Positions 5,077 through 34,582 of a stretch of DNA of 64,000 nucleotides are shown in pieces. The DNA comes from Bacillota bacterium (GTDB lineage: Bacteria; Bacillota; Clostridia; Oscillospirales; Oscillospiraceae), in assembly GCA_029224785.1 (NCBI GenBank), contig JAQXVF010000009.1:10314-74313 (forward strand), written 5' to 3'. Each line of letters begins with the position of its first letter. The stretch's first letter is position 1. The translations under genes and the position numbers were made by a program. The notes beneath the pieces are model-generated. The model was not told the DNA's origin. It saw only the letters and a program-made list of their open reading frames with translations, and did not search any database.

Positions 5077-6081
5077 ATGAAAGCGTTGTTTCTGTTCAGA
5101 CGGCTGATGAAGATGGACTACAGGCGCACCCTGATGGATATCCGGACCTCCGCCCAACGCTCCGGAAGAACGTTTTCGTTCATTGCATGGGATATGTTCC
5201 GCTGCGGTATCCGGTACGGAGCCGGTCCGGTGGACTACACGCTGTTTGCCTTCTACGACAAAACAGAGGACCAGCGGGCAAGCTACGTAACACGGACCAT
5301 CAGCACCCAGTTGGTGCGCACCCTGAACGATGCAGGATACCGGCAGTTCCTGGACAGCAAGAGCCTACAGTGCCGGAAATTCTCTCCCTTCATGAAACGG
5401 GACTGGATGTGCACTTCCTATATGAATCCGGCATCCTTTGCCCGATTCTGTCAAGGTAAGCAGGCATTCCTCTACAAACCGGACACAGGCTCCTGCGGAA
5501 AGGGAATCCGGAAGTATTTGCCAGCCCAGGATAATCTGCCCCGGCTGTTTGAGGAGATCGCTTCCCTGCCGGCAGGGGTGCTGGAGGAAGTGATCTGTCA
5601 GCACACCGCACTTTCCGAGCTGAATCCTGGCTGTGTCAATACGGTGCGTCTGGTGACCATCCTTCAAAACGGGGTGTACACTCCCGTCTGTGCCGTTCTT
5701 CGCATGGGAAGGTCCGGAAACATTGTGGACAACCTGAACAGCGGCGGCATTGCTGCCCGTATCGACCTGCAGACTGGTCTTGTCTCCGGCCCTGCTGCAG
5801 ATAAAGCGGGAAATCTGTACGAATGCCATCCGGATTCAGGGATTACCGTAGACGGCTTTCAGATCCCTCTCTGGGATCAGGTGCTATCCCTTGGAAAAGC
5901 ACTGAGTCAGACCCTGCCACAGATGAAATATGTAGGCTGGGATATTGCCATCCGGCAGGAAGATGTGATTTTTGTGGAGGGGAACTGGCTTCCCGGTCAT
6001 GACATTATGCAGCTTCCCGCCTTCTGCGCCGACGGATACGGCATTCTGCCCGCCATACGAAAAGCGATTTCCGCTGCATAG
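5077..6081 (+). CDS. ATP-grasp domain protein (sugar-transfer-associated ATP-grasp / alpha-L-glutamate-ligase-related family)
   Basis: 334 aa, AGGAAG 7 nt before the ATG. Motifs KPDTGSCGKGI, NTVRLVT, DNLNSGGIAA, YVGWDIA, EGNWLPGHD. Clear paralog of 41689..42711. Confidence 0.7.
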   Translation: MKALFLFRRLMKMDYRRTLMDIRTSAQRSGRTFSFIAWDMFRCGIRYGAGPVDYTLFAFYDKTEDQRASYVTRTISTQLVRTLNDAGYRQFLDSKSLQCRKFSPFMKRDWMCTSYMNPASFARFCQGKQAFLYKPDTGSCGKGIRKYLPAQDNLPRLFEEIASLPAGVLEEVICQHTALSELNPGCVNTVRLVTILQNGVYTPVCAVLRMGRSGNIVDNLNSGGIAARIDLQTGLVSGPAADKAGNLYECHPDSGITVDGFQIPLWDQVLSLGKALSQTLPQMKYVGWDIAIRQEDVIFVEGNWLPGHDIMQLPAFCADGYGILPAIRKAISAA

Positions 6082-21374: not shown

Positions 21375-22676
21375 TCAGTCAGAATAATACACACGAACGA
21401 TGCACTGATAGGTTTCGCCTTCGTAGACACAGTAAACCGTGGTCATACCGCCGGAAATACCGGTCACTTCGTTGCCGTATACGGAGATGATATTAGAATC
21501 TCCCGCATACCATTCCACGTCCACCGGGTTGTCATTGGTATCATATAACTCGATGAGGAAGGTGCTTCCCACATATAATGTCACGTCAATGTGATTGATG
21601 ATGTACCGGGCAGGTTCATCGGGTCGGTTCTCTGAGTTCCCTCCGGAGGACTGGTTGTCGCCGCCATCGCCGTCCGAATCCGGGAAATTACAGCGCACAA
21701 TACAGCTTACCGTCTTCCCCTCATAGGAGCCGTACACAGTGGTGGTTCCGCTGTGAATTGCCTTCACCACACCGTTTTCAATGGACGCAATCCCGGGATC
21801 ATCGCTGGTCCAGATCACACTGTTGTAGGGGATCTTGCCGATCTGGAACTGGAATGTCTCTCCCCGATAGGACAGCGTAATGTCATCCCGGTCCAGGCTG
21901 AATTCCTCGGCGGAAACCGTCTCCTTCGGATCCGTGGTTTCCTTGGGGTCGGTGGAGACAGGCTTTGTGGTGGCCGGTGGCACCGTAGTCTCAGCAGCAA
22001 AGGTGCAGACCACCTTACAGGCAACGGAAACATCACCGCAGGTCACGGTCACAATGGCTTCTCCCGGCCCCACCGCCGTAACGGAACCATCGGGATTGAC
22101 AGTCACCACCTTTTCATTGGAGGAGGCAAAGACCATCCGGTCGGTCGTATCGGAAGGCACCGGCTTGGCATCCAGCAGCAGAACATCTCCTTTGGCGGCA
22201 AAGGTCATGCTGGTCCGGCTCAGAGTGATTTCCGTACAGGGAATGCCGGACTGATTGTTATCCGAAACGGAAGGAGTACTGCTTTCGGACGGCGTCGGGA
22301 CGTCATTCCGGAAATACGGAAGCGCGTAGGTCACCACGATATACGCAGCCAGGGCAAGGATCAGCAGCAGGATCAGCAGAATGGCAATCCACGGCCCACG
22401 CTTCTTTTTCTCGTCGGACTGAGGATCCAGGCGAGGCTTCGGCTCCCGGGCATTGACGGACACGGCAAGCTTCTGCTTCTGGGAAGCCATCGTTCTCTTT
22501 TTAACATTTGCTTTGGTATAGTAACCGCCTTTTGGGGCTTTTTTATCGGAAACAGAGGATTTTTTCTCTGCGGTGGACTTCTCATTTTTTCCCTGTGGAG
22601 AGCTGCCACAAATGGGACATACGGATGCAGAATCCGGATACGCAGTTCCGCATACCTTGCATATCACCTTGCTCAT
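21375..22676 (-). CDS. membrane protein: N-terminal zinc ribbon, Lys-rich linker, one TM, extracellular Ig-like (Big_2-like) repeats
   Basis: Start MSKVICKVCGTAYPDSASVCPICG at 22676 after GGAAGGG. TM segment WIAILLILLLILALAAYIVVTYAL. Repeated ...VTAVGPGEAIVTVT... and ...VKAIHSGTTTVYGS... strands are typical of bacterial Ig-like group 2 domains. Confidence 0.7.
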   Translation of the reverse strand: MSKVICKVCGTAYPDSASVCPICGSSPQGKNEKSTAEKKSSVSDKKAPKGGYYTKANVKKRTMASQKQKLAVSVNAREPKPRLDPQSDEKKKRGPWIAILLILLLILALAAYIVVTYALPYFRNDVPTPSESSTPSVSDNNQSGIPCTEITLSRTSMTFAAKGDVLLLDAKPVPSDTTDRMVFASSNEKVVTVNPDGSVTAVGPGEAIVTVTCGDVSVACKVVCTFAAETTVPPATTKPVSTDPKETTDPKETVSAEEFSLDRDDITLSYRGETFQFQIGKIPYNSVIWTSDDPGIASIENGVVKAIHSGTTTVYGSYEGKTVSCIVRCNFPDSDGDGGDNQSSGGNSENRPDEPARYIINHIDVTLYVGSTFLIELYDTNDNPVDVEWYAGDSNIISVYGNEVTGISGGMTTVYCVYEGETYQCIVRVYYSD

Positions 22677-22820
22677 AATACCCTTCCTTTCGACACGGTC
22701 TTGCAAAATGTGCGCTTTTATTATATCATTGAATCCGACAGAAAACAACTACAAACATGTTGCATTTTTTGCTATTTTATTTTATCATATAAGAAGACTA
22801 TGGAAATGGAGGCGATGGAT

Positions 22821-25715
22821 ATGTCGGAACTGAAACCGATTTCTCCCCTTCTGGACGGTTACGCCATCGGGGAATCCATAAGCAGTCATGACGGCGTTCG
22901 CTGTTACCCTGCCATGCCCGTCGGTTCGGATGCCAAGTATATTATCAAGGTGGTTACGGTACCCGCTTCGGAGGTGCAGTTCCACGCCTTTTTGCTCAGC
23001 GGCGTCTACCCTTCCCGGGAAAAGACGCTGGCCTACTTCAAGGACATGGCAAACGGCGTGGTTCACGAGGCGGAGGCCCTGCGGCATCTTTCCCGCTTCG
23101 GCGGATTCACCTCTTATGAAAGCTGGCAGACGGAGCCTTTGGAAAACGGCTGCGGATATCAGGTTTATCTGCTGGGTACCTATAAGGATTCACTTCAGAA
23201 ATACATCAGCCGGAATTCCCTGACCCAGTTGGAGGCCGTCAATCTGGGATTGGACCTGTGTGCTGCCCTGACCACCGCAAGAAATGCCGGATGTCTGTGT
23301 GTAGACGTGAAACCGGAAAACATTTTTATCGGTGATGACGGGAAATACCGCATCGGCGACCTGGGATTCATTCCCCTGTCCTGTCTGAGCTATTCTTCCC
23401 TTCCCGATCGGTACCACAGCCCGTACTCCGCTCCGGAGCTCAGTGATCCCATGGCCTCCGTCAGCGCCACCGCAGACGTGTATTCCATGGGTCTGATCCT
23501 GTATCAGGTGTATAACAACGGTGTTCTTCCGGAAATCGTTCCCGGAAAGCCCATCCCAGCCCCGGAATATGCGGATTATGAAATGGCAGAGATCATTCTC
23601 AAAGCGATTGATCCCAATCCAGCCATGCGCTGGGAAGATCCCAGACAGATGGGGCAATTCCTGGTATCCTATATGCAGCGCAACCCGGTGAACGATACCC
23701 CCATCATTCCACCTGCTGATCCGGATATGGATCTGGGCGACCTGTCCCTCGAGGATACCCAGATGCCGGAGCTTCAGATAGATCCGCCGGCGGAGAACCC
23801 CGACAGTGAAGGAAGCGATGGATCCGCCGATTCCGAGCCCCGGGAACCGGATGAGCTGGCATTCCTGCAGGATCTTGTGCAGGACGAATCTGCCCCCAGT
23901 GAGGAAATGGCGGATGAGATCTCCCACGAGGACGTTTCCGGTGAGACCGCGCAGATGCTTTCCCGTCTGGACGAGCTGGTAGCCCACGAAGCCCCTGCAC
24001 CCGTAGTTCCCCCGGAGCCGATTGAGGTTCCCATGCCGGAGCCGATTCCTCCAGAGCCGGATACACCGCCGGAGGAGGAAACGATGCCTTCGCAGGCCGA
24101 AGACGAGGAAGCGGAACAGCCGGAGACGGACGAGCCTGAACCCCAGCCGGAAGAATCCGCAGCAGAAGAACCGGAAGAAGAAGGCTACGCTCCGGAAAAG
24201 AAGAAGTCGAAACTCAAAGGGTTTCTTGTTGCAGCCGCTCTGCTGGCTCTGGTATTCGCCGGGATATTCTATGCATACCAGTTCTATTACCTGCAGAATG
24301 TGGATTCCCTGGTTGTGAACGGAGACCAGACCTCCATTACCGTCCAGATCAAAACGGAAATTCCGGAAAGCAAGCTGAAGATCCTTTGCACCGATGCCTA
24401 CGGCAACACCCACAGCGCTTCCGTTGAAAACGGCTCGGCTGTCTTTACCGATCTGACACCGGATACCCTGTACCAGATCCGCGTTACCATGGAGGGCTTC
24501 CATAAGGTCAGCGGCTCCTGCAGCGCAAGCTTCTCTACCAAGGCAGCCACCAATATCCTGAATCTGACCGCAGCCACCGGTGCAGAAAGCTCCTCCGCCA
24601 TCGTCAGCTTCTCCGTTGACGGTGTCGATTGTGAGGAATGGACTTTGACCTACCGCGCAGAGGGTGAGGAAGCCAAGAGCATAACCTTCAGCGGTCATCT
24701 GGCCACTCTGAACGACCTGACTGTGGGAAAAACCTACACCCTTTCCCTTTCCCCCAACGCAGAGACTCTGGTGACCGGCAACCGTGAGATTACATTCGTT
24801 CCCTCCCGTTTGATTTATGCAGAAAATGTATCCGCCGTTCTTTCCGGAGAGAAAGATATCACCGTCTCCTGGCAGGCCCCGGAAGGCACCTCCGTGGAGT
24901 ACTGGACGGTTCACTGCCTGGGAGATAACCAGTACGACCAGACGGTTAAGGTATTCGAGAACACCTGCACCTTTACCGATGTTGCCGAAAATCAGAACTA
25001 CGCCATTGAGATCACCGCTGCCGGTATGACCCAGGCGGTTCGCACCACCATCAGCACGTCTCCCAAGATCCTGACCGGATTCGTGGCAGAGGAAGTGTCC
25101 TCCCGTCAGATTCTGCTGGGGATCCGCACGGAGTCCCCGCTGACCGATGACAGCAAGCGCTGGCTGATCCGGTATTCCGTCAACGGAATCGAGCAGGATC
25201 CCATCTCCGTCAGCAGCAATTCCGCTGTTCTCTCTCCGGTCCTTCCGGGCGGACAGTATGAAATCACCCTGACGGAGACGGATGGTTCCCCCACTTCTGT
25301 GGCTCCCATCTCCTGCACCGTGCCGGAAGCCGAAAATTTCGACAGCTTCGGAACCAACCTGGATAACATCGTGATCTTTATGCTCCCGACCCCCGATACG
25401 GTGGGCTGGGGATTCAATGATGTGTCCGGTGGAGACTACACCACCTATTTCGATGCCGGAGAAAAGGCCTCCTACCTTTTCCTGAATCTGGGTGCGGACA
25501 CTGATGAAACCGGTGATGTCGGCGTGGTGTTTGCCGTCTATTCCGGAGACCGCTTTCTGAGCATGGAAACCAGATCGCTCCGGTGGGAGACCATGTGGAC
25601 AGATGGTTACTGCGCTATGGACATTGAAAAGATGCCTGCTCAGTCCGGCAACTATCACATGGACATCTTCTTTGACGGTCAGTATCTGAACACCATCTAT
25701 TTTACAATCAACTGA
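22821..25715 (+). CDS. Hanks-type Ser/Thr protein kinase-like membrane protein with acidic/Pro-rich linker and four FN3-like ectodomain repeats
   Basis: ORF 21753..25715. The upstream third is antisense to the neighbouring gene. Likely start is ATG 22821, 8 nt after GGAGG (alternative 22800). Kinase subdomains: YIIKVV (beta3 Lys), EAEALRHL, CVDVKPENIF, IGDLGF, SPYSAPE, DVYSMGLILY. No Gly-rich loop. TM FLVAAALLALVFAGIFYAY. FN3-like strand motifs LTPDTLYQIRV, LTVGKTYTLSL, NQNYAIEIT, PGGQYEITL. Confidence 0.75.
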   Translation: MSELKPISPLLDGYAIGESISSHDGVRCYPAMPVGSDAKYIIKVVTVPASEVQFHAFLLSGVYPSREKTLAYFKDMANGVVHEAEALRHLSRFGGFTSYESWQTEPLENGCGYQVYLLGTYKDSLQKYISRNSLTQLEAVNLGLDLCAALTTARNAGCLCVDVKPENIFIGDDGKYRIGDLGFIPLSCLSYSSLPDRYHSPYSAPELSDPMASVSATADVYSMGLILYQVYNNGVLPEIVPGKPIPAPEYADYEMAEIILKAIDPNPAMRWEDPRQMGQFLVSYMQRNPVNDTPIIPPADPDMDLGDLSLEDTQMPELQIDPPAENPDSEGSDGSADSEPREPDELAFLQDLVQDESAPSEEMADEISHEDVSGETAQMLSRLDELVAHEAPAPVVPPEPIEVPMPEPIPPEPDTPPEEETMPSQAEDEEAEQPETDEPEPQPEESAAEEPEEEGYAPEKKKSKLKGFLVAAALLALVFAGIFYAYQFYYLQNVDSLVVNGDQTSITVQIKTEIPESKLKILCTDAYGNTHSASVENGSAVFTDLTPDTLYQIRVTMEGFHKVSGSCSASFSTKAATNILNLTAATGAESSSAIVSFSVDGVDCEEWTLTYRAEGEEAKSITFSGHLATLNDLTVGKTYTLSLSPNAETLVTGNREITFVPSRLIYAENVSAVLSGEKDITVSWQAPEGTSVEYWTVHCLGDNQYDQTVKVFENTCTFTDVAENQNYAIEITAAGMTQAVRTTISTSPKILTGFVAEEVSSRQILLGIRTESPLTDDSKRWLIRYSVNGIEQDPISVSSNSAVLSPVLPGGQYEITLTETDGSPTSVAPISCTVPEAENFDSFGTNLDNIVIFMLPTPDTVGWGFNDVSGGDYTTYFDAGEKASYLFLNLGADTDETGDVGVVFAVYSGDRFLSMETRSLRWETMWTDGYCAMDIEKMPAQSGNYHMDIFFDGQYLNTIYFTIN

Positions 25716-25720
25716 CTTCT

Positions 25721-25756
25721 GGGCAGCCCTGCAGGGCTGCCCTTTCCATTTTTTTC
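25721..25756 (+). terminator. Rho-independent terminator
   Basis: gggcagccc tgca gggctgccc followed by tttccattttttt. Confidence 0.8.
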
Positions 25757-25821
25757 GGATAGACATATCCGTAAATTCTGCTATAATAGCGGCATACAGC
25801 ATTACAAAAGGAGGCGGCAGC

Positions 25822-26388
25822 ATGAAAGGAAACAGCCATCGTGCTCTTGGAGAGTATCTGGCAGGACGATTCCTGACAGAAGCCGCGCCCCGCTATACCC
25901 GGGCGTTTCTGCTGGGATGTGTGGAGCCTGACCATAATCCCTCTACCTATCTGAAAGGCTCCATCCGCTCCCAATGGCTCCACGGCCACAACTGGGGCAA
26001 TTCCGAGTGCCTGATCTGCCGGTTTTCCAACCGTCTGGAACGCCGCCGCACTCTACACCTCTGGGACTATTACACTCTGGGAAAACTGGTGCACTACACG
26101 GCGGACGCCTTTACATCCGTACATAACGCCCATTTTTCCGCCGGTCTCCGGCATCACCGTATGTACGAAAAAGCCCTGCAGAATCATTTCCTGCAGAACA
26201 TTGACCTGAAAGAACCAGGAGATCTCTCCGGAGAAGACTCCCTGTTTTCGCTGTTGTGCAGCTTCCACGCGGAATACAGCGAAGTCCCATCCAACATCTA
26301 TACGGACACCCACTATGTCCTCAGCGCCTGCTCCGCGGTGGTGGCCATGGTCCTCAGATCCTCTCAGCCGGTCTGCGGAAAATTATGA
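25822..26388 (+). CDS. zinc-dependent phospholipase C family protein
   Basis: 188 aa after AAAGGAGG. Pattern NSHRALGEYL...AFLLGCVEPDHNPS...LGKLVHYTADAFTSVHN matches the small clostridial Zn_dep_PLPC-like family as I recall it. Confidence 0.7.
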   Translation: MKGNSHRALGEYLAGRFLTEAAPRYTRAFLLGCVEPDHNPSTYLKGSIRSQWLHGHNWGNSECLICRFSNRLERRRTLHLWDYYTLGKLVHYTADAFTSVHNAHFSAGLRHHRMYEKALQNHFLQNIDLKEPGDLSGEDSLFSLLCSFHAEYSEVPSNIYTDTHYVLSACSAVVAMVLRSSQPVCGKL

Positions 26389-26407
26389 CAAAATCCGGAT
26401 TTTCCAC

Positions 26408-26436
26408 TTGCAATTATCCACCGGGTGTGGTAGAAT
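26408..26436 (+). promoter_or_regulatory. sigmaA-type promoter of the aro operon leader
   Basis: TTGCAA (26408-13), 17 nt spacer, TAGAAT (26431-36), with TG at 26428-29 (extended -10). Confidence 0.6.
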
Positions 26437-26469
26437 GTCCGCAATGAATGTATTCGGAGGCAAACACCA

Positions 26470-26538
26470 ATGATTCTCTCCACCAGTGCTGCACAGTTCT
26501 TTTTTGGCTACTATTACTTTTTTGCTGAGAAAAAGTAA
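26470..26538 (+). CDS. putative Phe/Tyr-rich leader peptide MILSTSAAQFFFGYYYFFAEKK
   Basis: GGAGG (26456-60) lies 9 nt before ATG 26470. 22 codons. Codons 10-18 (26497-26523) read FFFGYYYFF. Stop TAA 26536-38. Lies between the promoter and the attenuator terminator upstream of aroF. Confidence 0.6.
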   Translation: MILSTSAAQFFFGYYYFFAEKK

Positions 26539-26582
26539 TAGCGTTTTGTGCTGCACAAAAAAACCGTTCCACATGAAATCCC

Positions 26583-26618
26583 GCCGCACAGAATCTCTTC
26601 TGTGCGGCTTTTTATTTT
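26583..26618 (+). terminator. intrinsic terminator (attenuator) in the aro operon leader
   Basis: Perfect 11-bp stem gccgcacagaa (26583-93) / ttctgtgcggc (26598-608), loop tctc, then tttttatttt. The aroF RBS AGGAG is at 26622. Confidence 0.75.
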
Positions 26619-26634
26619 GACAGGAGTTGTTAAC

Positions 26635-27636
26635 ATGATTGCAATACTCAAGCGCGGAACCAGTGCCCAGCAGGCACAGCATCTCATCGATTGGCTGAAA
26701 AACATGAACCTGGATGTTCATGTCTCCACCGGCACGGAAATCACCGTTCTGGGTCTCATCGGCGATACCAGCCGTGTGGACATGGAACTGCTTTCCAGTC
26801 TGGAGATCGTGGACAGCGTTAAGCGCGTGTCCGAGCCCTACAAGCAGGCCAATCGGAAATTCCATCCAAACGACAGCGTCATTCAGGCAGGACAGGTCTC
26901 CATCGGAGGCGGCAATTTTGCCCTGATTGCCGGTCCCTGCTCTGTGGAATGCGAGGAGCAGATCATTGAAGTGGCGCAGTCCGTGAAGAAATCCGGTGCA
27001 AACATCCTTCGTGGCGGCGCATTCAAGCCCCGCACCTCCCCCTATGCCTTCCAGGGCCTGAAAGCTGAGGGTATCCGGCTTCTTCTGGAAGCAAAAAAAG
27101 CCACCGGACTTCCCATCATCACCGAGATTATGGATATCCGCACGCTGGATCTGTTCGAGGATGTGGATATCATCCAGGTAGGCGCAAGAAATATGCAGAA
27201 CTTCGATCTTCTGCAGGAGCTGGGCAGCACAAATAAGCCCATTCTGCTCAAGCGCGGCCTGGCCAATACCATTCAGGAGCTGCTGATGAGTGCGGAATAC
27301 ATTATGAGCCGCGGAAACGAGAACATCATTCTCTGTGAGCGCGGCATCCGCACCTATGAGACCGCTACCAGAAACACGCTGGACCTGTCTGCCGTTCCTG
27401 TTCTCCACGAGCTGACCCACCTGCCCGTAGTGGTGGATCCCAGCCATGCCACCGGACGTGTTTCCCTGGTGCCTCCCATGGCCGCAGCCGCAGCCGCCTG
27501 CGGAGCAGACGGCATCATGGTGGAGGTTCACAACAACCCGAGCTGTGCCCTGTGCGACGGTGCCCAGTCTCTGACGCCTGTTCAGTTTGACGAAGTGGCA
27601 GCGAAGGTTCGCCGGATTCGGGAGGCTATCTCATGA
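26635..27636 (+). CDS. aroF: 3-deoxy-7-phosphoheptulonate (DAHP) synthase, type I-beta with N-terminal ferredoxin-like regulatory domain
   Basis: Start MIAILKRG at 26635, 8 nt after AGGAG. Motifs [42 protein letters not shown]. Confidence 0.9.
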
Positions 27637-28463
27637 CCGTCGGGATTCTCGGACTGGGTCTCATCGGCGGCTCCATGGCAAGGGCCTATTCCGTAGCCGG
27701 GCATACGGTGCTTGCCGCGGACCGGGATGAAACCATTCTCTCCTTCGCCATGCTGACCGGAGCCGTCCACGGCGTTCTGGACAGCGGCAGCATCGGCTCC
27801 TGTGATTTGATCCTCCTTGCCATTTATCCCGGCGGGTCTGCCGCCTGGCTGGAGGAGCACGCCGGTCAGGTCAGTCCCCATGCGGTGGTTATTGACTGCT
27901 GCGGTATCAAAACAGAGATCTGCCGCCGGTGCTTTCCCTTAGCGAAGAAATACGGTTTCCTCTTTGTAGGCGGGCATCCCATGGCCGGCTCCCAGTTTTC
28001 CGGCTTCAAATACAGCCGTGCGGGACTGTTTCTGGGTGCCCCTATGGTCCTGGTTCCGCCCCGGTTTGACGATATTGCCATGCTGGAACGGGTCAAGGAT
28101 CTCCTCAAACCCTGTGGCTTCGGCTCCTTCTCCGTGACCACCGCGCAGGAACACGATGAACTGATCGCCTTTACCTCCCAGATGCCCCACATTCTCAGTA
28201 ACGCCTTCATTAAGTCTCCCACCGCTCTGAAGCATAAGGGCTTCTCCGCCGGAAGCTACAAGGATCTGACACGGGTAGCCTGGCTGAATGCTCCCATGTG
28301 GGCGGAGCTTTGCATGGACAACCGGGATAACACCATCCGGGAGCTGGAAGTCTATCTCGAAAATCTGAGCAAATACCTGACTGTCCTGAAAGACCGGGAT
28401 ATGGAAGGACTGACCGCCCTCCTGGAGGAAGGAAAAATACGAAAGGAAGAGGTAGACGGATGA
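27633..28463 (+). CDS. tyrA: prephenate dehydrogenase
   Basis: ILGLGLIGGS Rossmann motif plus GGHPMAG. ATGA overlap with aroF. Confidence 0.85.
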   Translation: MTVGILGLGLIGGSMARAYSVAGHTVLAADRDETILSFAMLTGAVHGVLDSGSIGSCDLILLAIYPGGSAAWLEEHAGQVSPHAVVIDCCGIKTEICRRCFPLAKKYGFLFVGGHPMAGSQFSGFKYSRAGLFLGAPMVLVPPRFDDIAMLERVKDLLKPCGFGSFSVTTAQEHDELIAFTSQMPHILSNAFIKSPTALKHKGFSAGSYKDLTRVAWLNAPMWAELCMDNRDNTIRELEVYLENLSKYLTVLKDRDMEGLTALLEEGKIRKEEVDG

Positions 28464-29512
28464 TCACCATTCCCATTACTGCGTCCAGAACATATGAGGT
28501 CCGGATCGGAAGCGGACTTCTGGAAGAACTGGGCTCTCAGTCTCGTGAAATCGTCAAGGCAGAGACTGCCGTTGTGGTTTCCGACAGCACAGTCTTTCCC
28601 CTCTACGGTGAATATGCCCTTTCTTCCCTGAAAAAGGCCGGTTTCCGATGCCTTTCCTTTGTTTTCCCAGCCGGAGAAGAGAGCAAAAACGCCGCTACTT
28701 ACCTTTCTCTGCTGGGATTTCTGGCAGAGAAACGGATCACACGTTCGGATCTGCTGGTTGCCCTGGGGGGCGGCGTTGTCGGCGATCTGACCGGGTTTGC
28801 CGCAGCCACCTATCTGCGGGGTATCCCGTACATTCAGGTGCCTACGACCCTGCTGTCCGCCGTAGATTCGTCTGTAGGCGGAAAAACCGCAATCGATCTT
28901 CCGGAGGGAAAAAACCTGGTTGGTGCATTCTACCAGCCCAGCCTTGTGATCTGTGATACCGACACCCTGAACACCCTGCCTGAGGATATTTTTCTTGACG
29001 GCTGCGCTGAGGTCATCAAGTATGGTATTTTGTTTGACCCGACGCTCTTTTCCGCCCTGGAAGAATCCGGCCCTGCATTTTCCCGGGAACAGGTCATTGC
29101 CGCCTGCGTGAAATGGAAGCGGGATGTCGTTGCACAGGACGAATTTGACACCGGACTTCGAAAAATGCTGAATCTGGGACACACCGTTGGCCACGGTGTG
29201 GAAGCCGGAAGCCAGTTTGCCCTGTCTCACGGGAAATCGGTAGCCATCGGTACCGCCATTGTCACCCGTGCCGCTGCCTCGAAGGGCATTTGCAGCAAGG
29301 AGACGGAAACCCGTATTCTGCGGTGTCTGGAAAAATTCAGCCTTCCTGTCAGGACCGATTTTTCTCCGGAGCAGCTTGCCGCCTATGCCCTTTCCGACAA
29401 AAAACGCCGAGGCGGCACGGTAGATCTGATCCTCCCACGTCAGATCGGAGACTGTATCATCGTTCCCACCTCTGTGGAAGACATCCAATCCCTGATTGAA
29501 GCCGGAGTGTAA
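28460..29512 (+). CDS. aroB: 3-dehydroquinate synthase
   Basis: ALGGGVVGDLTGFAAATYLRGIPYIQVPTTLLSAVDSSVGGKTAI and NLGHTVGHGVE. ATGA overlap with tyrA. Confidence 0.9.
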   Translation: MITIPITASRTYEVRIGSGLLEELGSQSREIVKAETAVVVSDSTVFPLYGEYALSSLKKAGFRCLSFVFPAGEESKNAATYLSLLGFLAEKRITRSDLLVALGGGVVGDLTGFAAATYLRGIPYIQVPTTLLSAVDSSVGGKTAIDLPEGKNLVGAFYQPSLVICDTDTLNTLPEDIFLDGCAEVIKYGILFDPTLFSALEESGPAFSREQVIAACVKWKRDVVAQDEFDTGLRKMLNLGHTVGHGVEAGSQFALSHGKSVAIGTAIVTRAAASKGICSKETETRILRCLEKFSLPVRTDFSPEQLAAYALSDKKRRGGTVDLILPRQIGDCIIVPTSVEDIQSLIEAGV

Positions 29513-29513
29513 T

Positions 29514-30695
29514 ATGAATGTGACGATTTCTCCCGGGCCGCTCCACGGTACGGTGCATGCCATTGCCTCCAAGTCTGTGGCCCACCGCATCCTGATCTGC
29601 TCGGCATTTGCCGATCGGGAAACCATCCTCGACTGCCCGGAAACCAACGATGACATTGAGGCCACAGCCTCCTGTCTGCGTTCCCTGGGAGCCACCGTGA
29701 TTCGGACTCAGACCGGATACCGGGTGATCCCGGCAGAAGCTATTCCCCAAAAAGCCCTTTTGCACTGCGGTGAAAGCGGGTCTACTCTTCGTTTTCTCCT
29801 TCCTGTTGCCGGGGCTTTGGGAGTGGAAGCCACCTTCCGGCTTGCCGGAAGGCTGCCCCAGCGCCCGTTATCTCCTCTGTGGGAGGAAATGGAGCGAATG
29901 GGATGCACACTGTCCCGCCCCACGGAGGACACGCTTCTATGCCGTGGAAAGCTGCGGCCGGGAGATTACCGGATCGACCCTGGAATCTCCAGCCAGTTCG
30001 TTTCCGGGCTCCTGTTTGCCATGGCGCTGACGGAAGGCTCCTCCCGGCTGACGCTTTACGGAAAGGCGGAATCCCAGCCCTACATTGCCATGACCCGGGA
30101 CGCGCTTTCCCGGTTCGGCGTGCGTACAGAGGACTATGCGGTTACGGAAAACCACCATCTGGTCTCACCGGGCACCGTGAAAGTGGAGGGCGACTGGAGC
30201 AACGCCGCATTTTTCCTGGCGGCAAAAGCCCTGGGAAACGACCTGACCGTTACCAATCTGAATCCCGGAAGCGCCCAGGGTGACCGGGCCGTTGTGGATG
30301 TTCTGGAAAGCCTGAACGCTTTTTCCCGGATTGACGCAGCGGACATTCCGGACCTGGTTCCCGTTCTGGCAGTTGCAGCCGGAGCAAAATCCGGCGCCGA
30401 ATTTCGTAATATCCGCCGCCTGCGTCTGAAGGAATCCGACCGGGTGGAGTCCGTATGCGCGATGATCCGCTCCCTGGGGGGCCGGGCGGAATCCACGGAA
30501 AACACCCTTACCGTGTATCCCACAGGATATTCCGGCGGAACCGTTGACTCTGCAGGAGATCACCGCATCGCCATGTCTGCAGCCATTGCCGCTACCGTCG
30601 CCACCGGACCGGTTACGGTTCTGGAGGCCCAATGCGTCCGGAAATCCTATCCGGATTTCTGGAACGTGTATCAACAATTGGGGGGAAAACTATGA
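29514..30695 (+). CDS. aroA: 3-phosphoshikimate 1-carboxyvinyltransferase (EPSP synthase)
   Basis: Start MNVTISPGPLHGTV at 29514 (the track ORF begins at TTG 29496). Motifs ASKSVAHR, LHCGESGSTLRFL, LRLKESDR, DHRIAMS. Confidence 0.9.
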   Translation: MNVTISPGPLHGTVHAIASKSVAHRILICSAFADRETILDCPETNDDIEATASCLRSLGATVIRTQTGYRVIPAEAIPQKALLHCGESGSTLRFLLPVAGALGVEATFRLAGRLPQRPLSPLWEEMERMGCTLSRPTEDTLLCRGKLRPGDYRIDPGISSQFVSGLLFAMALTEGSSRLTLYGKAESQPYIAMTRDALSRFGVRTEDYAVTENHHLVSPGTVKVEGDWSNAAFFLAAKALGNDLTVTNLNPGSAQGDRAVVDVLESLNAFSRIDAADIPDLVPVLAVAAGAKSGAEFRNIRRLRLKESDRVESVCAMIRSLGGRAESTENTLTVYPTGYSGGTVDSAGDHRIAMSAAIAATVATGPVTVLEAQCVRKSYPDFWNVYQQLGGKL

Positions 30696-31768
30696 GCAGT
30701 ACCTTTGGACAGAGCCTGAAGCTGTCCATTTTCGGTCAATCCCACGGTGCCGCCATCGGAATGACCTTGGATGGGATTCCGGCGGGACTGCCGGTGGATT
30801 TTGACCGGCTTCAGGCATTTCTGAACCGCCGGGCACCGGGGCAGAACGACTATTCCACTCCCCGGAAAGAGGCAGACCTGCCGGAGTTTCCCGCCGGAAT
30901 CGTGGATGGATTCACCTGCGGCGCTCCCATTGCGGCTCTGATCCGCAACACCAACACCCGTTCCGGAGACTACAGCGATCTGCGTGATCGTCCCCGTCCC
31001 GGCCATGCGGACTACACGGCTGCCGTGAAATATGGGGGATTTCAGGACGTTGCCGGAGGAGGACACTTTTCCGGCAGGCTGACGGCGCCCCTTTGCATTG
31101 CCGGAGGGCTTTGCCTGCAGTGGCTGGAAAAGCAGGGAATCTCCGTATTCGCCCACATTCTGCAGATCGGTTCTGTGCGGGATCAGGCATTTGACCCCCT
31201 GAATCCGGATCCGGAGAGGATTCACACCCCCTTCCCCGTCCTGGATCCGGAGAAAGGAGCCGCCATGCAGGCAGAGATTTCAACCGCCAGGTCGGACGGC
31301 GACAGCATCGGCGGAATTGTGGAATGTGCAATTACCGGACTTCCCGTTGGATTGGGAGATCCCATGTTCGACGGGGTGGAAAACCGGATTGCATCCATCG
31401 TTTTCGGAATCCCTGCCGTAAAGGGTGTGGATTTCGGAAGCGGCTTTGACGCCGCCTGTCTCCGGGGAAGCCAGAATAACGACGGTTATCTGATGAAAGA
31501 CGGAAAAGTCAGTCTGCTCTCCAATCATGCAGGCGGCATCCTGGGCGGAATTTCCAACGGCGCACCGGTGATTTTCCGCTCTGCCATCAAGCCCACCCCG
31601 TCCATTTCCCGAACGCAGCACACCGTATCCCTTTCAAAAGGTACCGACTGCACACTGAATGTTCAGGGCCGCCATGACCCCTGCATCGTCCCCAGAGCAG
31701 TTCCCGTTGTGGAAGCTGCCGCTGCCCTTGCCGTTTTTGATCTCTGCCTGGGCAGTCACCATATCTAA
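30692..31768 (+). CDS. aroC: chorismate synthase
   Basis: Start MSSTFGQSLKLSIFGQSHG at 30692 (ATGA overlap with aroA). Motifs RPGHADY, GGGHFSGR, GRHDPC. Confidence 0.9.
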   Translation: MSSTFGQSLKLSIFGQSHGAAIGMTLDGIPAGLPVDFDRLQAFLNRRAPGQNDYSTPRKEADLPEFPAGIVDGFTCGAPIAALIRNTNTRSGDYSDLRDRPRPGHADYTAAVKYGGFQDVAGGGHFSGRLTAPLCIAGGLCLQWLEKQGISVFAHILQIGSVRDQAFDPLNPDPERIHTPFPVLDPEKGAAMQAEISTARSDGDSIGGIVECAITGLPVGLGDPMFDGVENRIASIVFGIPAVKGVDFGSGFDAACLRGSQNNDGYLMKDGKVSLLSNHAGGILGGISNGAPVIFRSAIKPTPSISRTQHTVSLSKGTDCTLNVQGRHDPCIVPRAVPVVEAAAALAVFDLCLGSHHI

Positions 31769-31780
31769 GGAGGAAGAAAA

Positions 31781-32923
31781 ATGGATTTATCGGAACTTCG
31801 TACCCAGATCGATGGAATTGACAGTCAGATCGTGGATCTGTTCTGCAAGAGAATGGAAACGTCGGCCATGATTGCCGCCTACAAGCAGGAGCACGGGCTG
31901 CCGATCTACGTTCCGGCCCGAGAGCGGGATAAGCTGCAGGAGGTCAGCCGCCTTGCCGGGGAGAGTATGGAAACCTATACCCGCGTTCTGTACTCCATGC
32001 TGTTTGAGCTGAGCCGCAGCTACCAGAGCAAATGCAACAACAGCACCTCTCCCCTTTACAAGGAAATCTCCGACGCAATCGCAAACACGCCCAATCTCTT
32101 CCCCCAGAGCGCCATGGTTGCCTGTCAGGGCGTAGAGGGAGCCTATAGCCAGATTGCCTGCGAGAAGATCTTCAAGTCCCCCATGGTCATGTATTTCAAG
32201 AATTGGGAAAGCGTCTTTACCGCCATCGAAAAGGGCCTGTGCCAGTACGGTATTCTTCCAATCGAAAACTCCACTGCCGGATCCGTTACCAAGGTGTATG
32301 ATCTGATGATCCGGCATAATTTTTCCATCGTCCGGACCTTCCGCCTGAAGGTGGACCACAACCTGCTTGCAAATCCCGGGGCAAAGATAGAGGATATCCG
32401 GGAGGTCTATTCTCACGAGCAGGCCATCCATCAGTGCAGCGATTTCCTCAGCCAGCACCCCAATATTGTGGTTCACGCCGTAGAAAACACTGCTGTCGCT
32501 TCGGAAATGGTTGCAAAATCCGGTCGGAAGGACATTGCCGCTCTGTCCAGCCGCAACTGCGCTGAACTGTACGGTCTGAGCATTCTGGCAAGCTCCGTTC
32601 AGGACACCGGCAACAACCGGACCCGGTTCATCTGCATCAGCAAGAAAATGGAGATTTATCCCGGCTCCGATAAGACCAGCATTATGATGATCCTTCCTCA
32701 CAGGCCCGGCTCCCTGTACCGTGTGCTGGCACGACTCTTTGTCCTGGGCATCAACGTAACGAAGCTGGAGTCCCGCCCCATTCCGGACAGGGATTTTGAA
32801 TTCATGTTCTACTTTGATCTGGAAACCTCCATTTATTCCGAAGAGTTTATTCAGTTGATGTGTGAACTGGACCAGCTCTGCGAAGAATTCAAGTATCTGG
32901 GCAGCTACTGCGAGGTCGTATGA
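31781..32923 (+). CDS. pheA: bifunctional chorismate mutase / prephenate dehydratase (with ACT domain)
   Basis: N-terminal CM helix LRTQIDGIDSQIVDLFCKR. PDT core VACQGVEGAYS...PIENSTAGSV. C-terminal ACT-like TSIMMILPHRPGSLYRVL...ESRP. Confidence 0.9.
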   Translation: MDLSELRTQIDGIDSQIVDLFCKRMETSAMIAAYKQEHGLPIYVPARERDKLQEVSRLAGESMETYTRVLYSMLFELSRSYQSKCNNSTSPLYKEISDAIANTPNLFPQSAMVACQGVEGAYSQIACEKIFKSPMVMYFKNWESVFTAIEKGLCQYGILPIENSTAGSVTKVYDLMIRHNFSIVRTFRLKVDHNLLANPGAKIEDIREVYSHEQAIHQCSDFLSQHPNIVVHAVENTAVASEMVAKSGRKDIAALSSRNCAELYGLSILASSVQDTGNNRTRFICISKKMEIYPGSDKTSIMMILPHRPGSLYRVLARLFVLGINVTKLESRPIPDRDFEFMFYFDLETSIYSEEFIQLMCELDQLCEEFKYLGSYCEVV

Positions 32924-34143
32924 TGAAATGCGGCCTTTTGGGCGGGAAGCTGGGTCACAGCTATTCCCCGCAGATCCACGGCATGCTTGCCGATTATGAA
33001 TACCTGCTCTATGAAAAAACCCAGGAGGAGCTTTCGGAGTTTCTCCTTCATTCGGATGTCTGCGGTTTGAACGTCACCATTCCCTATAAGAAGACCGTGA
33101 TTCCCTTCTGCGCGGAGCTATCTCCCCGGGCACAGCGGCTGGGAGCCGTCAACACCCTGGTCCGGCGACCCGACGGCACCCTTGTGGGACATAACACCGA
33201 CTATTTCGGCTTTGAGACGCTGCTTCATCACAGCGGTCTGTCCGTTTCCGGGAAAAAAGCGCTGGTGCTGGGCAGCGGCGGCGCTTCTGCAACCGCGGTG
33301 GCCGTTCTGCAAGACCAAGGCGCTGACACCATTGTCATCTCCCGTTCCGGGGAAAACAACTATCAGAATCTGGGCCGTCACCGGGATGCCGCGCTGATCG
33401 TCAATGCTACCCCGGTGGGAATGTATCCGGGCAACGGCGCTGCTCCCCTGTCTCTGGATGGCTTTCCCCAACTGGAAGGGGTTCTGGACATGGTTTATAA
33501 CCCTGCCCGGACATCGCTGCTGCTGCAGGCAGAGGAACGCGGCATCCCTGCCGCAAACGGACTTCTCATGCTGGTGGCTCAGGCGAAGGAAAGCGCCGAG
33601 TGGTTCTTAGGGAAACCCATTTCGCAGGATGTGATTCCGAAGATCACCCGAAAGCTGAGATCCCAGATGGAAAACATCATTCTGATCGGCATGCCCGGCA
33701 GCGGAAAAACCACGGTTTCCTCCATCCTTCTGCAAAAAACCGGCAGGAAAACGGTGGATTCGGATGAAGAGTTCCTGGCCCGTTTCGGAAGAACACCTGC
33801 CCAGACAATCACGGAGGACGGCGAGGCCGCTTTTCGCCGGTTGGAAAGTCAAATGCTTGCTGAGCTGGGAAAACTGTCCGGCATTGTGCTGGCAACCGGC
33901 GGCGGATGCGTTACCGTTCCGGAAAACTATCCCCTGCTTCATCAAAATGGGACATTGTTTTATCTCCAACGCTCCCTGGATCTGCTTCCGTTGGACGGAC
34001 GCCCCATCTCCCGGAGCACCGGTGTGGAAGCGCTGTTTCAGAAGCGGGATCCCCTTTACCGTCAGTTTGCCGATCACCTGATCGACAACAACGGCCTGCC
34101 GGAAGCAGCGGCAGACCAGATCATGTCCATTTTGGGAGAGTGA
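32920..34143 (+). CDS. aroE: fused shikimate dehydrogenase / shikimate kinase
   Basis: N-terminal half: GHSYSPQIHG, NVTIPYK, GAVNTL, GHNTDYFG, LGSGGAS. C-terminal half: IILIGMPGSGKTTVS...DSDEE...LATGGG (AroK P-loop and core). Confidence 0.85.
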   Translation: MMKCGLLGGKLGHSYSPQIHGMLADYEYLLYEKTQEELSEFLLHSDVCGLNVTIPYKKTVIPFCAELSPRAQRLGAVNTLVRRPDGTLVGHNTDYFGFETLLHHSGLSVSGKKALVLGSGGASATAVAVLQDQGADTIVISRSGENNYQNLGRHRDAALIVNATPVGMYPGNGAAPLSLDGFPQLEGVLDMVYNPARTSLLLQAEERGIPAANGLLMLVAQAKESAEWFLGKPISQDVIPKITRKLRSQMENIILIGMPGSGKTTVSSILLQKTGRKTVDSDEEFLARFGRTPAQTITEDGEAAFRRLESQMLAELGKLSGIVLATGGGCVTVPENYPLLHQNGTLFYLQRSLDLLPLDGRPISRSTGVEALFQKRDPLYRQFADHLIDNNGLPEAAADQIMSILGE

Positions 34144-34147
34144 TATT

Positions 34148-34582
34148 ATGAAAATCCTGGTGATCAACGGTCCGAACATCAACATGGTGGGAATCCGGGA
34201 ACCGGGGATCTACGGAAAGCAGTCCTTTTCCGATCTTCTGACCATGTTGCAGCAGACCGCGAAGGAGGATCAGATTACCATCGATCAGTTCCAGTCCAAC
34301 CATGAGGGTGCCATTGTGGACACCATCCAGGCCGCTCTGGGCGTATATGACGGTATCGTCATCAATCCGGCTGCCTACACCCATACATCCGTTGCCATTC
34401 TGGATGCGCTGAAAGCCGTATCCATCCCCGCAGTGGAGGTCCATATCTCCGATGTGGATGCACGGGAGAGCTTCCGGCAGATCTCCTACGCCGGAAAAGC
34501 CTGCTTTGCCACCATCAAGGGACACGGTCTGCAGGGCTATGTGGAAGCCGTTCGTCTTTTGGAAAAGAAGCTAAGTGAATAA
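34148..34582 (+). CDS. aroQ: type II 3-dehydroquinate dehydratase
   Basis: MKILVINGPNINMVGIREPGIYG...QSNHEGAIVD...INPAAYTHTSVAI...EVHISD. Confidence 0.9.
   Translation: MKILVINGPNINMVGIREPGIYGKQSFSDLLTMLQQTAKEDQITIDQFQSNHEGAIVDTIQAALGVYDGIVINPAAYTHTSVAILDALKAVSIPAVEVHISDVDARESFRQISYAGKACFATIKGHGLQGYVEAVRLLEKKLSE

Follow-up and report, generated by a model that had tools for sequence, protein, structure and literature searches.

In the pheL–pheA, trpL and hisL attenuators of Escherichia coli, a Shine–Dalgarno (SD) sequence and a short open reading frame (ORF) with a run of cognate codons are followed by 1:2, 2:3 and 3:4 hairpins and a terminator, and a ribosome at the leader stop codon masks segment 2. 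We know of no Tyr-codon leader in E. coli, where aroF–tyrA is under TyrR. Here we describe an element of the same layout that lies 5' of the DAHP synthase gene aroF on contig JAQXVF010000009.1 of an Oscillospiraceae bacterium (Bacillota; Clostridia). The window, by which we mean the whole stretch of DNA that was analysed, is 64,000 nucleotides (nt) long; the element region is 26408-26634, and the element itself measures ~140 nt. It is very probably a ribosome-mediated leader-peptide transcription attenuator that couples an operon for the shikimate pathway, phenylalanine (Phe, F) and tyrosine (Tyr, Y) to the supply of charged tRNA-Phe and tRNA-Tyr, and the reading of the original prediction for this DNA, which had proposed a ribosome-mediated attenuator, is supported. 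Like the E. coli systems, the element combines an SD and short ORF, a cognate codon run, a terminator, an exclusive antiterminator and a 1:2 anti-antiterminator with stop-codon masking; in other words, it has every sequence- and fold-level defining feature of a classical leader-peptide attenuator while lying outside all curated sequence families. It differs from them in its mixed Phe/Tyr run, in its Clostridial host and in its lack of homology to Rfam leader families (Phe_leader and the others gave no match even at an expectation value (E) ≤ 10 in 25800-27200, and none at the gathering threshold in the whole window). A further difference is that the regulatory codons and the stops lie on opposite arms, 5' and 3' respectively, of one perfect apical hairpin. 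The mechanism is textbook, and nothing about it is mechanistically new; the added value is the breadth of the family, its absence from Rfam, a regulon that reaches to an ABC transporter and its presence in a phylum associated with runaway transcription.

The aroR–aroF attenuator of Corynebacterium glutamicum was reportedly described by Neshat et al. in 2014. In published accounts, the aroR leader, with its Phe-Tyr-Phe sequence 5' of aroF, shows increased read-through under Phe limitation, making it the closest validated analogue: both systems place a Phe/Tyr-codon leader 5' of aroF, with stalling leading to read-through and with control by tRNA charging (PMC11802643, PMC4046766). According to these accounts, aroR is actinobacterial, has the Phe-Tyr-Phe triplet only, and is reported as active under Phe limitation only; compared by description, the element studied here has eight F/Y codons, an eight-gene operon that includes pheA and tyrA, and an RNA core common to several operons. 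In a Bacillota-related lineage, the upstream ORF (uORF) candidate uORFC-13-1 precedes aroF of Acholeplasma, contains at least one Phe, and has 24 representatives, which come only from Acholeplasma and environmental sequences (PMC8632094). Compared by description, it too is a candidate Phe uORF followed by an intrinsic terminator 5' of aroF for which attenuation has been proposed. Leader-peptide attenuators for his genes have been predicted in the Firmicutes, namely in the Bacillus cereus group, Peptostreptococcaceae and Erysipelotrichales (PMC9413887, PMC2965389); these resemble the present element in that leader-peptide attenuation, found by comparative genomics, replaces T-box or repressor control, and they differ from it in amino acid, in operons, in their unrelated sequences and in the narrower taxonomic range of each. 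The view of the original prediction that the layout is atypical for Firmicutes therefore needs to be tempered, since both the his attenuators and the Acholeplasma uORF had already been proposed there. Our literature search turned up these analogues and no description of the present Clostridial Phe/Tyr family, with coverage that was incomplete, such that a prior description is possible.

Among the curated RNA families, the trpB motif (RF04312) comes nearest. This motif consists of a helix P1 and a terminator, with the antiterminator in the right shoulder of P1; it occurs in Firmicutes 5' of amino-acid-related genes and an uncharacterised ABC transporter, and its authors could not exclude a classic attenuator (PMC11109978). 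The two-hairpin layout is shared with our element, whereas the consensus differs and the F/Y codon run is absent from the motif. We considered membership of the element in the motif (33.5 bits, E = 0.018, 26510-26619, against a gathering threshold of 59) and rejected it because of this low score and because there was no match in 20 relatives at gathering or in nine relatives at E ≤ 1. Apart from this sub-threshold match, no Rfam 15 family matched in 25800-27200 at E ≤ 10, and none did so at gathering in the whole window, so that no Rfam family accounts for the region.

What does the locus itself look like? A base-level check placed all sequence features of 26408-26634 where the original prediction had put them (the promoter, GGAGG, 22-codon ORF, F/Y run, 12-base-pair (bp) hairpin, two decamer copies and terminator; see the table). 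The promoter scores 9/12 in a scan of the window, with the TG present. The leader ORF ends at a TAA that is directly followed by a second in-frame stop, TAG, at 26539-41, and eight of the nine codons of its regulatory run read Phe or Tyr (five F, three Y). Hairpin H, the apical hairpin of the 1:2 structure, is built from these elements: its 5' arm CUAUUACUUUUU consists of the last Tyr/Phe codons, its 3' arm AAAAAGUAAUAG reads Lys-Lys-stop-stop, and the stem can be extended by one further U-G pair. Segment 1 mimics the terminator 5' arm GCCGCACAG. The decamer GTGCTGCACA is found at 26486-95 and again at 26548-57, and the two copies do pair around a U-U as had been proposed; the extent of the pairing is corrected from 4+4+2 to 4+6 bp in the minimum free energy (MFE) structure (26486-89/26553-56 and 26491-96/26546-51). 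Directly 3' of the terminator stem lies the U-tract UUUUUAUUUU at 26609-18 (as DNA, TTTTTATTTT), and aroF starts close behind it, with a gap of 16 nt and not the 17 nt first given, the ATG being at 26635. The terminator sits 5' of the aroF SD (AGGAG, 26622-26), which is not sequestered. The element is present as a single copy, neither a DNA pattern search nor a covariance-model search having found a second one in the window; minus-strand covariance-model matches there are palindromic echoes of the same hairpins. Pfam assignments bear out the expected content of the downstream operon (26635..34582, plus strand): its eight genes cover all seven shikimate steps plus pheA and tyrA, and they include no trp genes. 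A leader that is rich in F and Y and nearly free of tryptophan (Trp, W) thus suits an operon that supplies Phe and Tyr and leaves out Trp.

Features of the leader region and its operon in the window, and sites of the element 5' of genes other than aroF (positions prefixed with a locus handle refer to that locus)
Feature	Position	Strand	Details
Sigma-70-type promoter	26408..26436	+	-35 TTGCAA 26408-13; 17-nt spacer; TG-extended -10 TAGAAT 26431-36
SD GGAGG of leader ORF	26456..26460	+	9 nt 5' of ATG at 26470
Leader ORF	26470..26538	+	22 codons + TAA; peptide MILSTSAAQFFFGYYYFFAEKK
Segment 1	26486..26496	+	GUGCUGCACAG; codons A-A-Q; pairs with segment 2
Regulatory codon run	26497..26523	+	TTC TTT TTT GGC TAC TAT TAC TTT TTT = FFFGYYYFF
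Hairpin H (apical hairpin of 1:2 structure)	26511..26541	+	perfect 12 bp, 26511-22 / 26530-41; -12.2 kcal/mol
Segment 2	26543..26556	+	GUUUUGUGCUGCAC; alternative partners segment 1 (anti-antiterminator) or terminator 5' arm (antiterminator)
Intrinsic terminator	26583..26618	+	11-bp stem GCCGCACAGAA/UUCUGUGCGGC, loop UCUC, 26583-26608; -19.0 kcal/mol
aroF	26635-27636	+	DAHP synthase with FXD domain (Pfam)
tyrA	27633-28463	+	prephenate dehydrogenase (Pfam)
aroB	28460-29512	+	dehydroquinate synthase (Pfam)
aroA	29496-30695	+	EPSP synthase (Pfam)
aroC	30632-31768	+	chorismate synthase (Pfam)
pheA	31781-32923	+	CM-PDT-ACT (Pfam)
aroE-aroK	32920-34143	+	shikimate dehydrogenase-kinase fusion (Pfam)
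aroQ	34148-34582	+	type II dehydroquinase (Pfam)
Non-aroF element site	L096:9201-9343		
Non-aroF element site	L114:87-212		
Non-aroF element site	L147:1665-1788		
Non-aroF element site	L081:6046-6157		
Non-aroF element site	L109:455-588	-	
Non-aroF element site	L136:1787-1882	-	
Non-aroF element site	L171:7143-7303	-	
Non-aroF element site	L092:2249-2409	-	

The leader ORF is conserved among relatives of this aroF. Protein relatives at 83-87% identity are many and are annotated as Oscillospiraceae or Ruminococcaceae; our comparison set consists of 80 loci whose aroF is 63-84% identical, taken from a single genome for each GTDB species (81 loci including the window), and it covers Faecousia (an Oscillospiraceae genus, class Clostridia), other Oscillospiraceae, Acutalibacteraceae, Ruminococcus, Lachnospiraceae, Lawsonibacter, Emergencia and the cultured Hominicoprocola fusiformis (strain CLA-AA-H269, locus L034, leader MKSIFVFAYYYYFTMDS). 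A small ORF with at least six F/Y residues in a nine-residue window is found within 300 nt 5' of aroF at 74 of the 81 loci (91%), compared with 1.1% of 1620 dinucleotide shuffles and one of 81 antisense controls, and a recognisable F/Y-rich leader is present at 76 of the 81. The start codon is ATG in 74 of these 76 leaders, and an SD-like tetramer lies 5' of the start in 66 of them. Pooled over the aroF leaders (1824 residues), there are 357 F, 299 Y and only two W, or ~4-5 each of F and Y per leader. The promoter is conserved as well; a sigma-70-like match of at least 10/13 occurs in 85.5% of 69 loci versus 2.2% of shuffles, and its position is fixed, with the -10 ending ~31 nt 5' of the leader ATG. 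In other words, the relatives show what the original prediction would have them show, a conserved F/Y run together with stems that carry compensatory changes, and the pattern that it feared, relatives with the terminator but without an F/Y ORF, was not seen: at the exceptions L032, L051, L057 and L066, aroF has no leader and the whole element is missing. The absence at L032, L051 and L066 means that the attenuator has been lost or replaced in some lineages.

The exceptions and a few other loci have features of their own. At L032, the terminator of the upstream gene abuts aroF, and L057 has, at 2900-2960, tandem AAAGCTT/AAAACCTT/AAAAGCTTAAAA-like repeats between a promoter-like site and an SD, in the place of the F/Y leader. 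Two records from outside the Bacillota, L041 (a Thermoguttaceae record; a Planctomycetota metagenome-assembled genome (MAG)) and L059 (Alloprevotella; a Bacteroidota MAG), contain a Clostridial-type aroF at 68% identity with F/Y leader and terminator; mis-binning is the likely reason for this placement, and horizontal transfer is less likely.

The two arms of hairpin H are constrained differently. Across 92 distinct core instances, the 5' arm is in frame with an upstream ATG and reads Tyr/Phe in all 92, whereas the 3' arm GUAAnAG and segment 2 are used in all three frames (K-K-stop; ..V-I-A-x-C..; ..S-N-S-x-L-C-C-K), and in five of the 92 they lie beyond the stop. Given that one arm keeps a fixed frame and the other is frame-free, the former is constrained as codons and the latter as RNA. 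This arm-specific pattern is exactly what a leader-peptide attenuator would be predicted to leave, and a pure RNA element or a protein-binding element would not be predicted to leave it.

Structure is conserved along with coding. The MFE of the region has a z-score of -3.57 and is better than that of all 200 dinucleotide shuffles. In an alignment of 29 close relatives (aroF 75-84% identical), the invariant or near-invariant blocks are CUAUUACUUUU, AAAGUAAUAG, UUUGUGCUGCA and GCCGCAC...GUGCGGC, and the flanks vary freely. Segment 1 (GCUGCACAG, coding for the recurrent A-A-Q) is similar to the 5' arm of the terminator and segment 2 (UUGUGCUGC) to the 3' arm, CUGUGCGGC, which is the relation that a 1:2 / 2:3 / 3:4 switch needs; the segment 2 core UUUGUGnUGCA is conserved family-wide. 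Over these 29 sequences, the terminator has 91.6% of cells paired with five compensatory pairs, hairpin H 98.6% without covariation, the outer 1:2 helix 77.0% with three compensatory pairs, and the antiterminator 92.5%, a terminator change from A-U to G-C being absorbed there as U-A to U-G. Hairpin H and the terminator are also predicted independently by RNAalifold from the unfitted alignment. We then built a covariance model from the close group, with distant loci kept outside the seed, and it gives one plus-strand match directly 5' of aroF in ~66 of the 80 loci; ~35 of the matched loci are distant, non-seed ones (E from 1e-12 to 1e-4). In a 62-sequence alignment, which was fitted to this model and whose pair counts are inflated for that reason, all 10 modelled pairs of the terminator covary (95.6% of cells paired), as do seven of the 12 pairs of hairpin H (95.7%), and eight of the 10 pairs of the outer 1:2 helix show compensatory changes (74.6%). 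Overall, 89% of cells are paired in these 62 sequences versus 34-54% in slid controls, and the observed values lie beyond those of all 500 shuffles; for the antiterminator, the figure is 86.3% versus 28-61% in slid controls (20-63% over both alignments). A typical change in hairpin H among distant members is UAU/AUA to UUU/AAA, that is, a Tyr-to-Phe codon switch compensated in the opposite arm. The terminator has -14 to -28 kcal/mol in nearly all leader-bearing loci.

Folding indicates how these parts might work together. In the window, the antiterminator has -10.9 to -14.4 kcal/mol and the 1:2 structure -25.2 kcal/mol, beside the terminator value given in the table; as duplexes, segment 2 has -15.2 kcal/mol with segment 1 and -14.4 kcal/mol with 26578-97. 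Full-length RNA keeps the terminator under every mask and is therefore unable to show a switch, so we used truncations that represent the nascent transcript. When the RNA ends at 26594-97 and is unmasked, 26486-96 is paired to 26546-56 with the hairpin 26511-41 nested inside, which is the 1:2 structure; once the FFF or YYY codons are masked by a ribosome footprint, the MFE switches to the antiterminator, 26543-54 with 26583-94. Thus, masked and unmasked folding bear out three claims of the original prediction, namely the alternative pairing of segment 2 with the terminator 5' arm, the release of segment 2 by a ribosome on the F/Y codons and the 1:2 / 2:3 / 3:4 logic, which holds in the window and, by constrained folding and comparative alignments, in the relatives. 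For a modelled stall on early F/Y codons, the antiterminator forms in 54 of 62 sequences and segment 2 is on segment 1 in none of the 62. The naked, ribosome-free RNA gives the antiterminator in 27 of 62 and segment 2 on segment 1 in 34 of 62. With a ribosome at the leader stop, the antiterminator forms in three of 48 (it is blocked in 45 of 48), at least 4 nt of segment 2 are covered in 42 of 48, and the terminator arm is never touched.

From these sequences and folds we infer leader translation, a fold switch driven by stalling, pausing and conditional termination, as follows. Transcription would start ~25 nt 5' of the leader ORF. In the emerging RNA, segment 1 (26486-96) and the Tyr/Phe codons (26511-22) would pair with 26530-56 to form a long 1:2 hairpin that would keep segment 2 sequestered and might, in addition, cause RNA polymerase to pause. 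With Phe and Tyr both plentiful, the ribosome would reach the UAA at 26536 with its footprint over the start of segment 2; segment 2 would be masked, or re-captured by segment 1, the terminator would form, and transcription would stop at 26609-18, before aroF. When either charged tRNA is scarce, the ribosome would stall on 26497-26523 and hold open segment 1 and the 5' arm of hairpin H. The freed segment 2 (26543-54) would capture the terminator 5' arm (26583-94) ahead of synthesis of the 3' arm, and the resulting antiterminator would allow the polymerase to read through into aroF...aroQ.

Besides the inflated pair counts of the fitted alignment, a number of points weigh against this interpretation. 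The terminator is always the thermodynamic winner in full-length RNA, such that the switch must be kinetic. Segment 1 remains available for pairing when the stall is modelled on the last two Phe codons. The 27 of 62 naked nascent RNAs that favour the antiterminator mean that it may be chiefly a ribosome at the stop codon that maintains the OFF state. The outer 1:2 helix is weaker than the other elements, with 75-77% of cells paired over the two alignments, and it was not recovered by RNAalifold from the unfitted alignment. Covariation in the antiterminator is modest because both of its strands are nearly invariant, and per-locus duplex shuffles, which are only moderately informative, give p ≤ 0.05 for the antiterminator in no more than 31% of loci and for 1:2 in 53% (mean z -1.3 and -1.7, respectively). 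Finally, Bacillota are classed as a phylum with runaway, that is, uncoupled, transcription (PMC13323073), in which a mechanism that needs ribosome and polymerase close together is less expected.

The alternative that survives best, improbable as we judge it to be, is that a trans-acting factor, either a TRAP- or PyrR-like RNA-binding regulatory protein or a small ligand, binds hairpin H and the UUUGUGCUGCA core and thereby sets terminator or antiterminator, with the F/Y ORF being secondary or a means of fine-tuning. Such a factor would fit the near-complete nucleotide invariance of hairpin H and segment 2 in the 29 close species, where the terminator stem covaries, and the best Rfam match, sub-threshold as it is, is to an orphan two-hairpin riboswitch candidate, the trpB motif (PMC11109978). 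Invariance of hairpin H in the close group is, however, also accounted for by a triple constraint, since the same nucleotides must supply F/Y codons, complementarity and the in-frame UAA UAG stops, and in distant members hairpin H covaries. The factor would leave unexplained why the ATG is in frame in 92 of 92 core instances and why an SD is present at 66 of 76 leaders; the element has no aptamer-like multi-helix junction, and the trpB model falls short in the window by the scores given earlier and has no match in 29 other members.

Somewhat less probable again is a leader that acts through its peptide, by TnaC-like nascent-chain arrest in response to free Phe or Tyr, or one whose main effect is on translation or mRNA stability. 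Nascent peptides rich in aromatic residues can interact with the exit tunnel of the ribosome, and many members have basic residues at the leader C-terminus, both of which would suit arrest. Sensing of free amino acids would nevertheless have the wrong sign, with a biosynthetic operon induced when its product is abundant, and the peptide is not conserved outside the F/Y run, the C-termini differing by frame. As for translation or stability, the strong intrinsic terminator with its U-tract lies 5' of an aroF SD that is left accessible.

Much the same data speak to chance, by which we mean an ORF that happens to lie in a U/A-rich structured 5' untranslated region with a constitutive or leaky terminator and no amino-acid-specific regulation. 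UUU and UAU codons come easily in U-rich sequence, and a single locus could not exclude this explanation; the frequency of the F/Y ORF relative to shuffles and antisense controls, however, effectively refutes it, the reading frame, the start codon and the SD have been kept even where sequences have diverged, and the element is specifically associated with genes for aromatic biosynthesis and transport, so that we give it very little credence. Direct sensing of uncharged tRNA-Phe or tRNA-Tyr, by a T-box or by some other leader that binds tRNA, has next to no chance of being correct: T-boxes are the usual amino-acid sensors of Firmicutes and a sub-threshold T-box-like match lies elsewhere on the L081 contig, but the element, at its length, lacks a Stem I/specifier-loop architecture, and the T-box model (RF00230) gave no match, as the original prediction expected; this holds for the window region at any E up to 10, for the whole window and 20 related loci at gathering, and for the element itself in nine further loci at E ≤ 1.

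The leader-peptide attenuator is not confined to aroF. A scan of metagenome contigs with the conserved core pattern found at least 120 places. Among the matches listed, aroF lies within 250 nt downstream at 73 places, usually with an operon order like that of the window; of the other 47, seven are too short to judge and 40 have no aroF directly downstream, many of these 40 having an identical leader region. For example, the element precedes a three-gene ABC transporter consisting of a PF04392 ABC_sub_bind lipoprotein, a BPD_transp_2 permease and an ABC ATPase (ABC_tran), an example of its leader being MRLERFASAYSYYYFSESNSRLCCKNTRTI. It also precedes tyrA-first operons, with leaders MTNLFATNSYYYYYYFNN and MTKSFVAISYYYYYYFEN that are Tyr-rich (e.g. 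...SYYYYYYF...), pheA-first operons, and an operon that begins with aroE/K and includes a DAHP synthase gene as well. The covariance model confirms these non-aroF members with E from 1e-10 to 1e-4. Since the same element occurs before aroF-, tyrA-, pheA- and aroE-first operons and before transporter operons, it has the appearance of a cis-element shared by an aromatic amino-acid regulon, and by this association the PF04392 ABC transporter is a probable Phe/Tyr (aromatic amino-acid) importer.

Does the composition of the leader follow the gene that it precedes? Among the matches listed, the ratio Y/(F+Y) is 0.75 for tyrA-first operons (two distinct leaders), 0.59 for the ABC transporter (10 distinct leaders), 0.49 for aroF (64 distinct leaders) and 0.46 for pheA-first operons (four distinct leaders); these values are suggestive of an F:Y ratio tuned to the downstream gene, in numbers too small to conclude. 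Phe and Tyr codons differ at the second base only, which would provide evolution with a simple dial for weighting the two signals; the Tyr-rich leaders of tyrA-first operons are a hint that such weighting takes place. As a separate observation, the leaders at L108, L176, L081 and L136/L158 (...TYWFYFYFY..., ...NWFYYYYYFYF...), which precede pheA-first, aroE-first and transporter operons, contain a single Trp codon within the F/Y run; it may be a third input, or it may be chance. At L081, a T-box-like match (80.6 bits against a gathering threshold of 93) lies at 5473-5702 on the minus strand, that is, on the opposite strand and ~370 nt upstream of the F/Y leader, so that T-box and leader-peptide control would coexist there in neighbouring divergent units.

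If the attenuation reading is right, the element would explain how the Phe/Tyr pathway can be controlled without a T-box, TRAP or known repressor in abundant, mostly uncultured gut Clostridia (Faecousia, other Oscillospiraceae, Acutalibacteraceae, Lachnospiraceae). The family is absent from Rfam 15 and is ready for a covariance model that could annotate hundreds of genomes, and it flags the PF04392 transporter discussed earlier as a probable importer. A widespread ribosome-mediated attenuator in Bacillota also bears on the view that transcription there is uncoupled (PMC13323073); under attenuation, the lead ribosome must stay near the polymerase over at least the first 150 nt to decide termination. 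We can also imagine, tentatively and as a possibility that we consider less than even, that the locus is the first described representative of an extensive cis-regulatory family, so far unannotated, of Oscillospirales, Lachnospirales and related gut Clostridia, one that defines an aromatic regulon, reads two signals through interconvertible UUY and UAY codons with an F:Y ratio tuned to each operon, and makes attenuation routine in a runaway-transcription phylum. Were this true, the near-invariant codon-containing hairpin would have a dedicated role in pausing or synchronisation.

Upstream of the element region, the window has further features. At 25721-42, there is a strong terminator-like hairpin, GGGCAGCCC...GGGCTGCCC, followed at 25760-87 by an 11/12 promoter match with TG; both lie 5' of a Zn-dependent phospholipase C-like gene (25822-26388). 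Just upstream of the element region, two very long ORFs overlap on opposite strands, one of 1320 aa at 21753-25715 (plus strand) and the other of 877 aa at 23190-25823 (minus strand).

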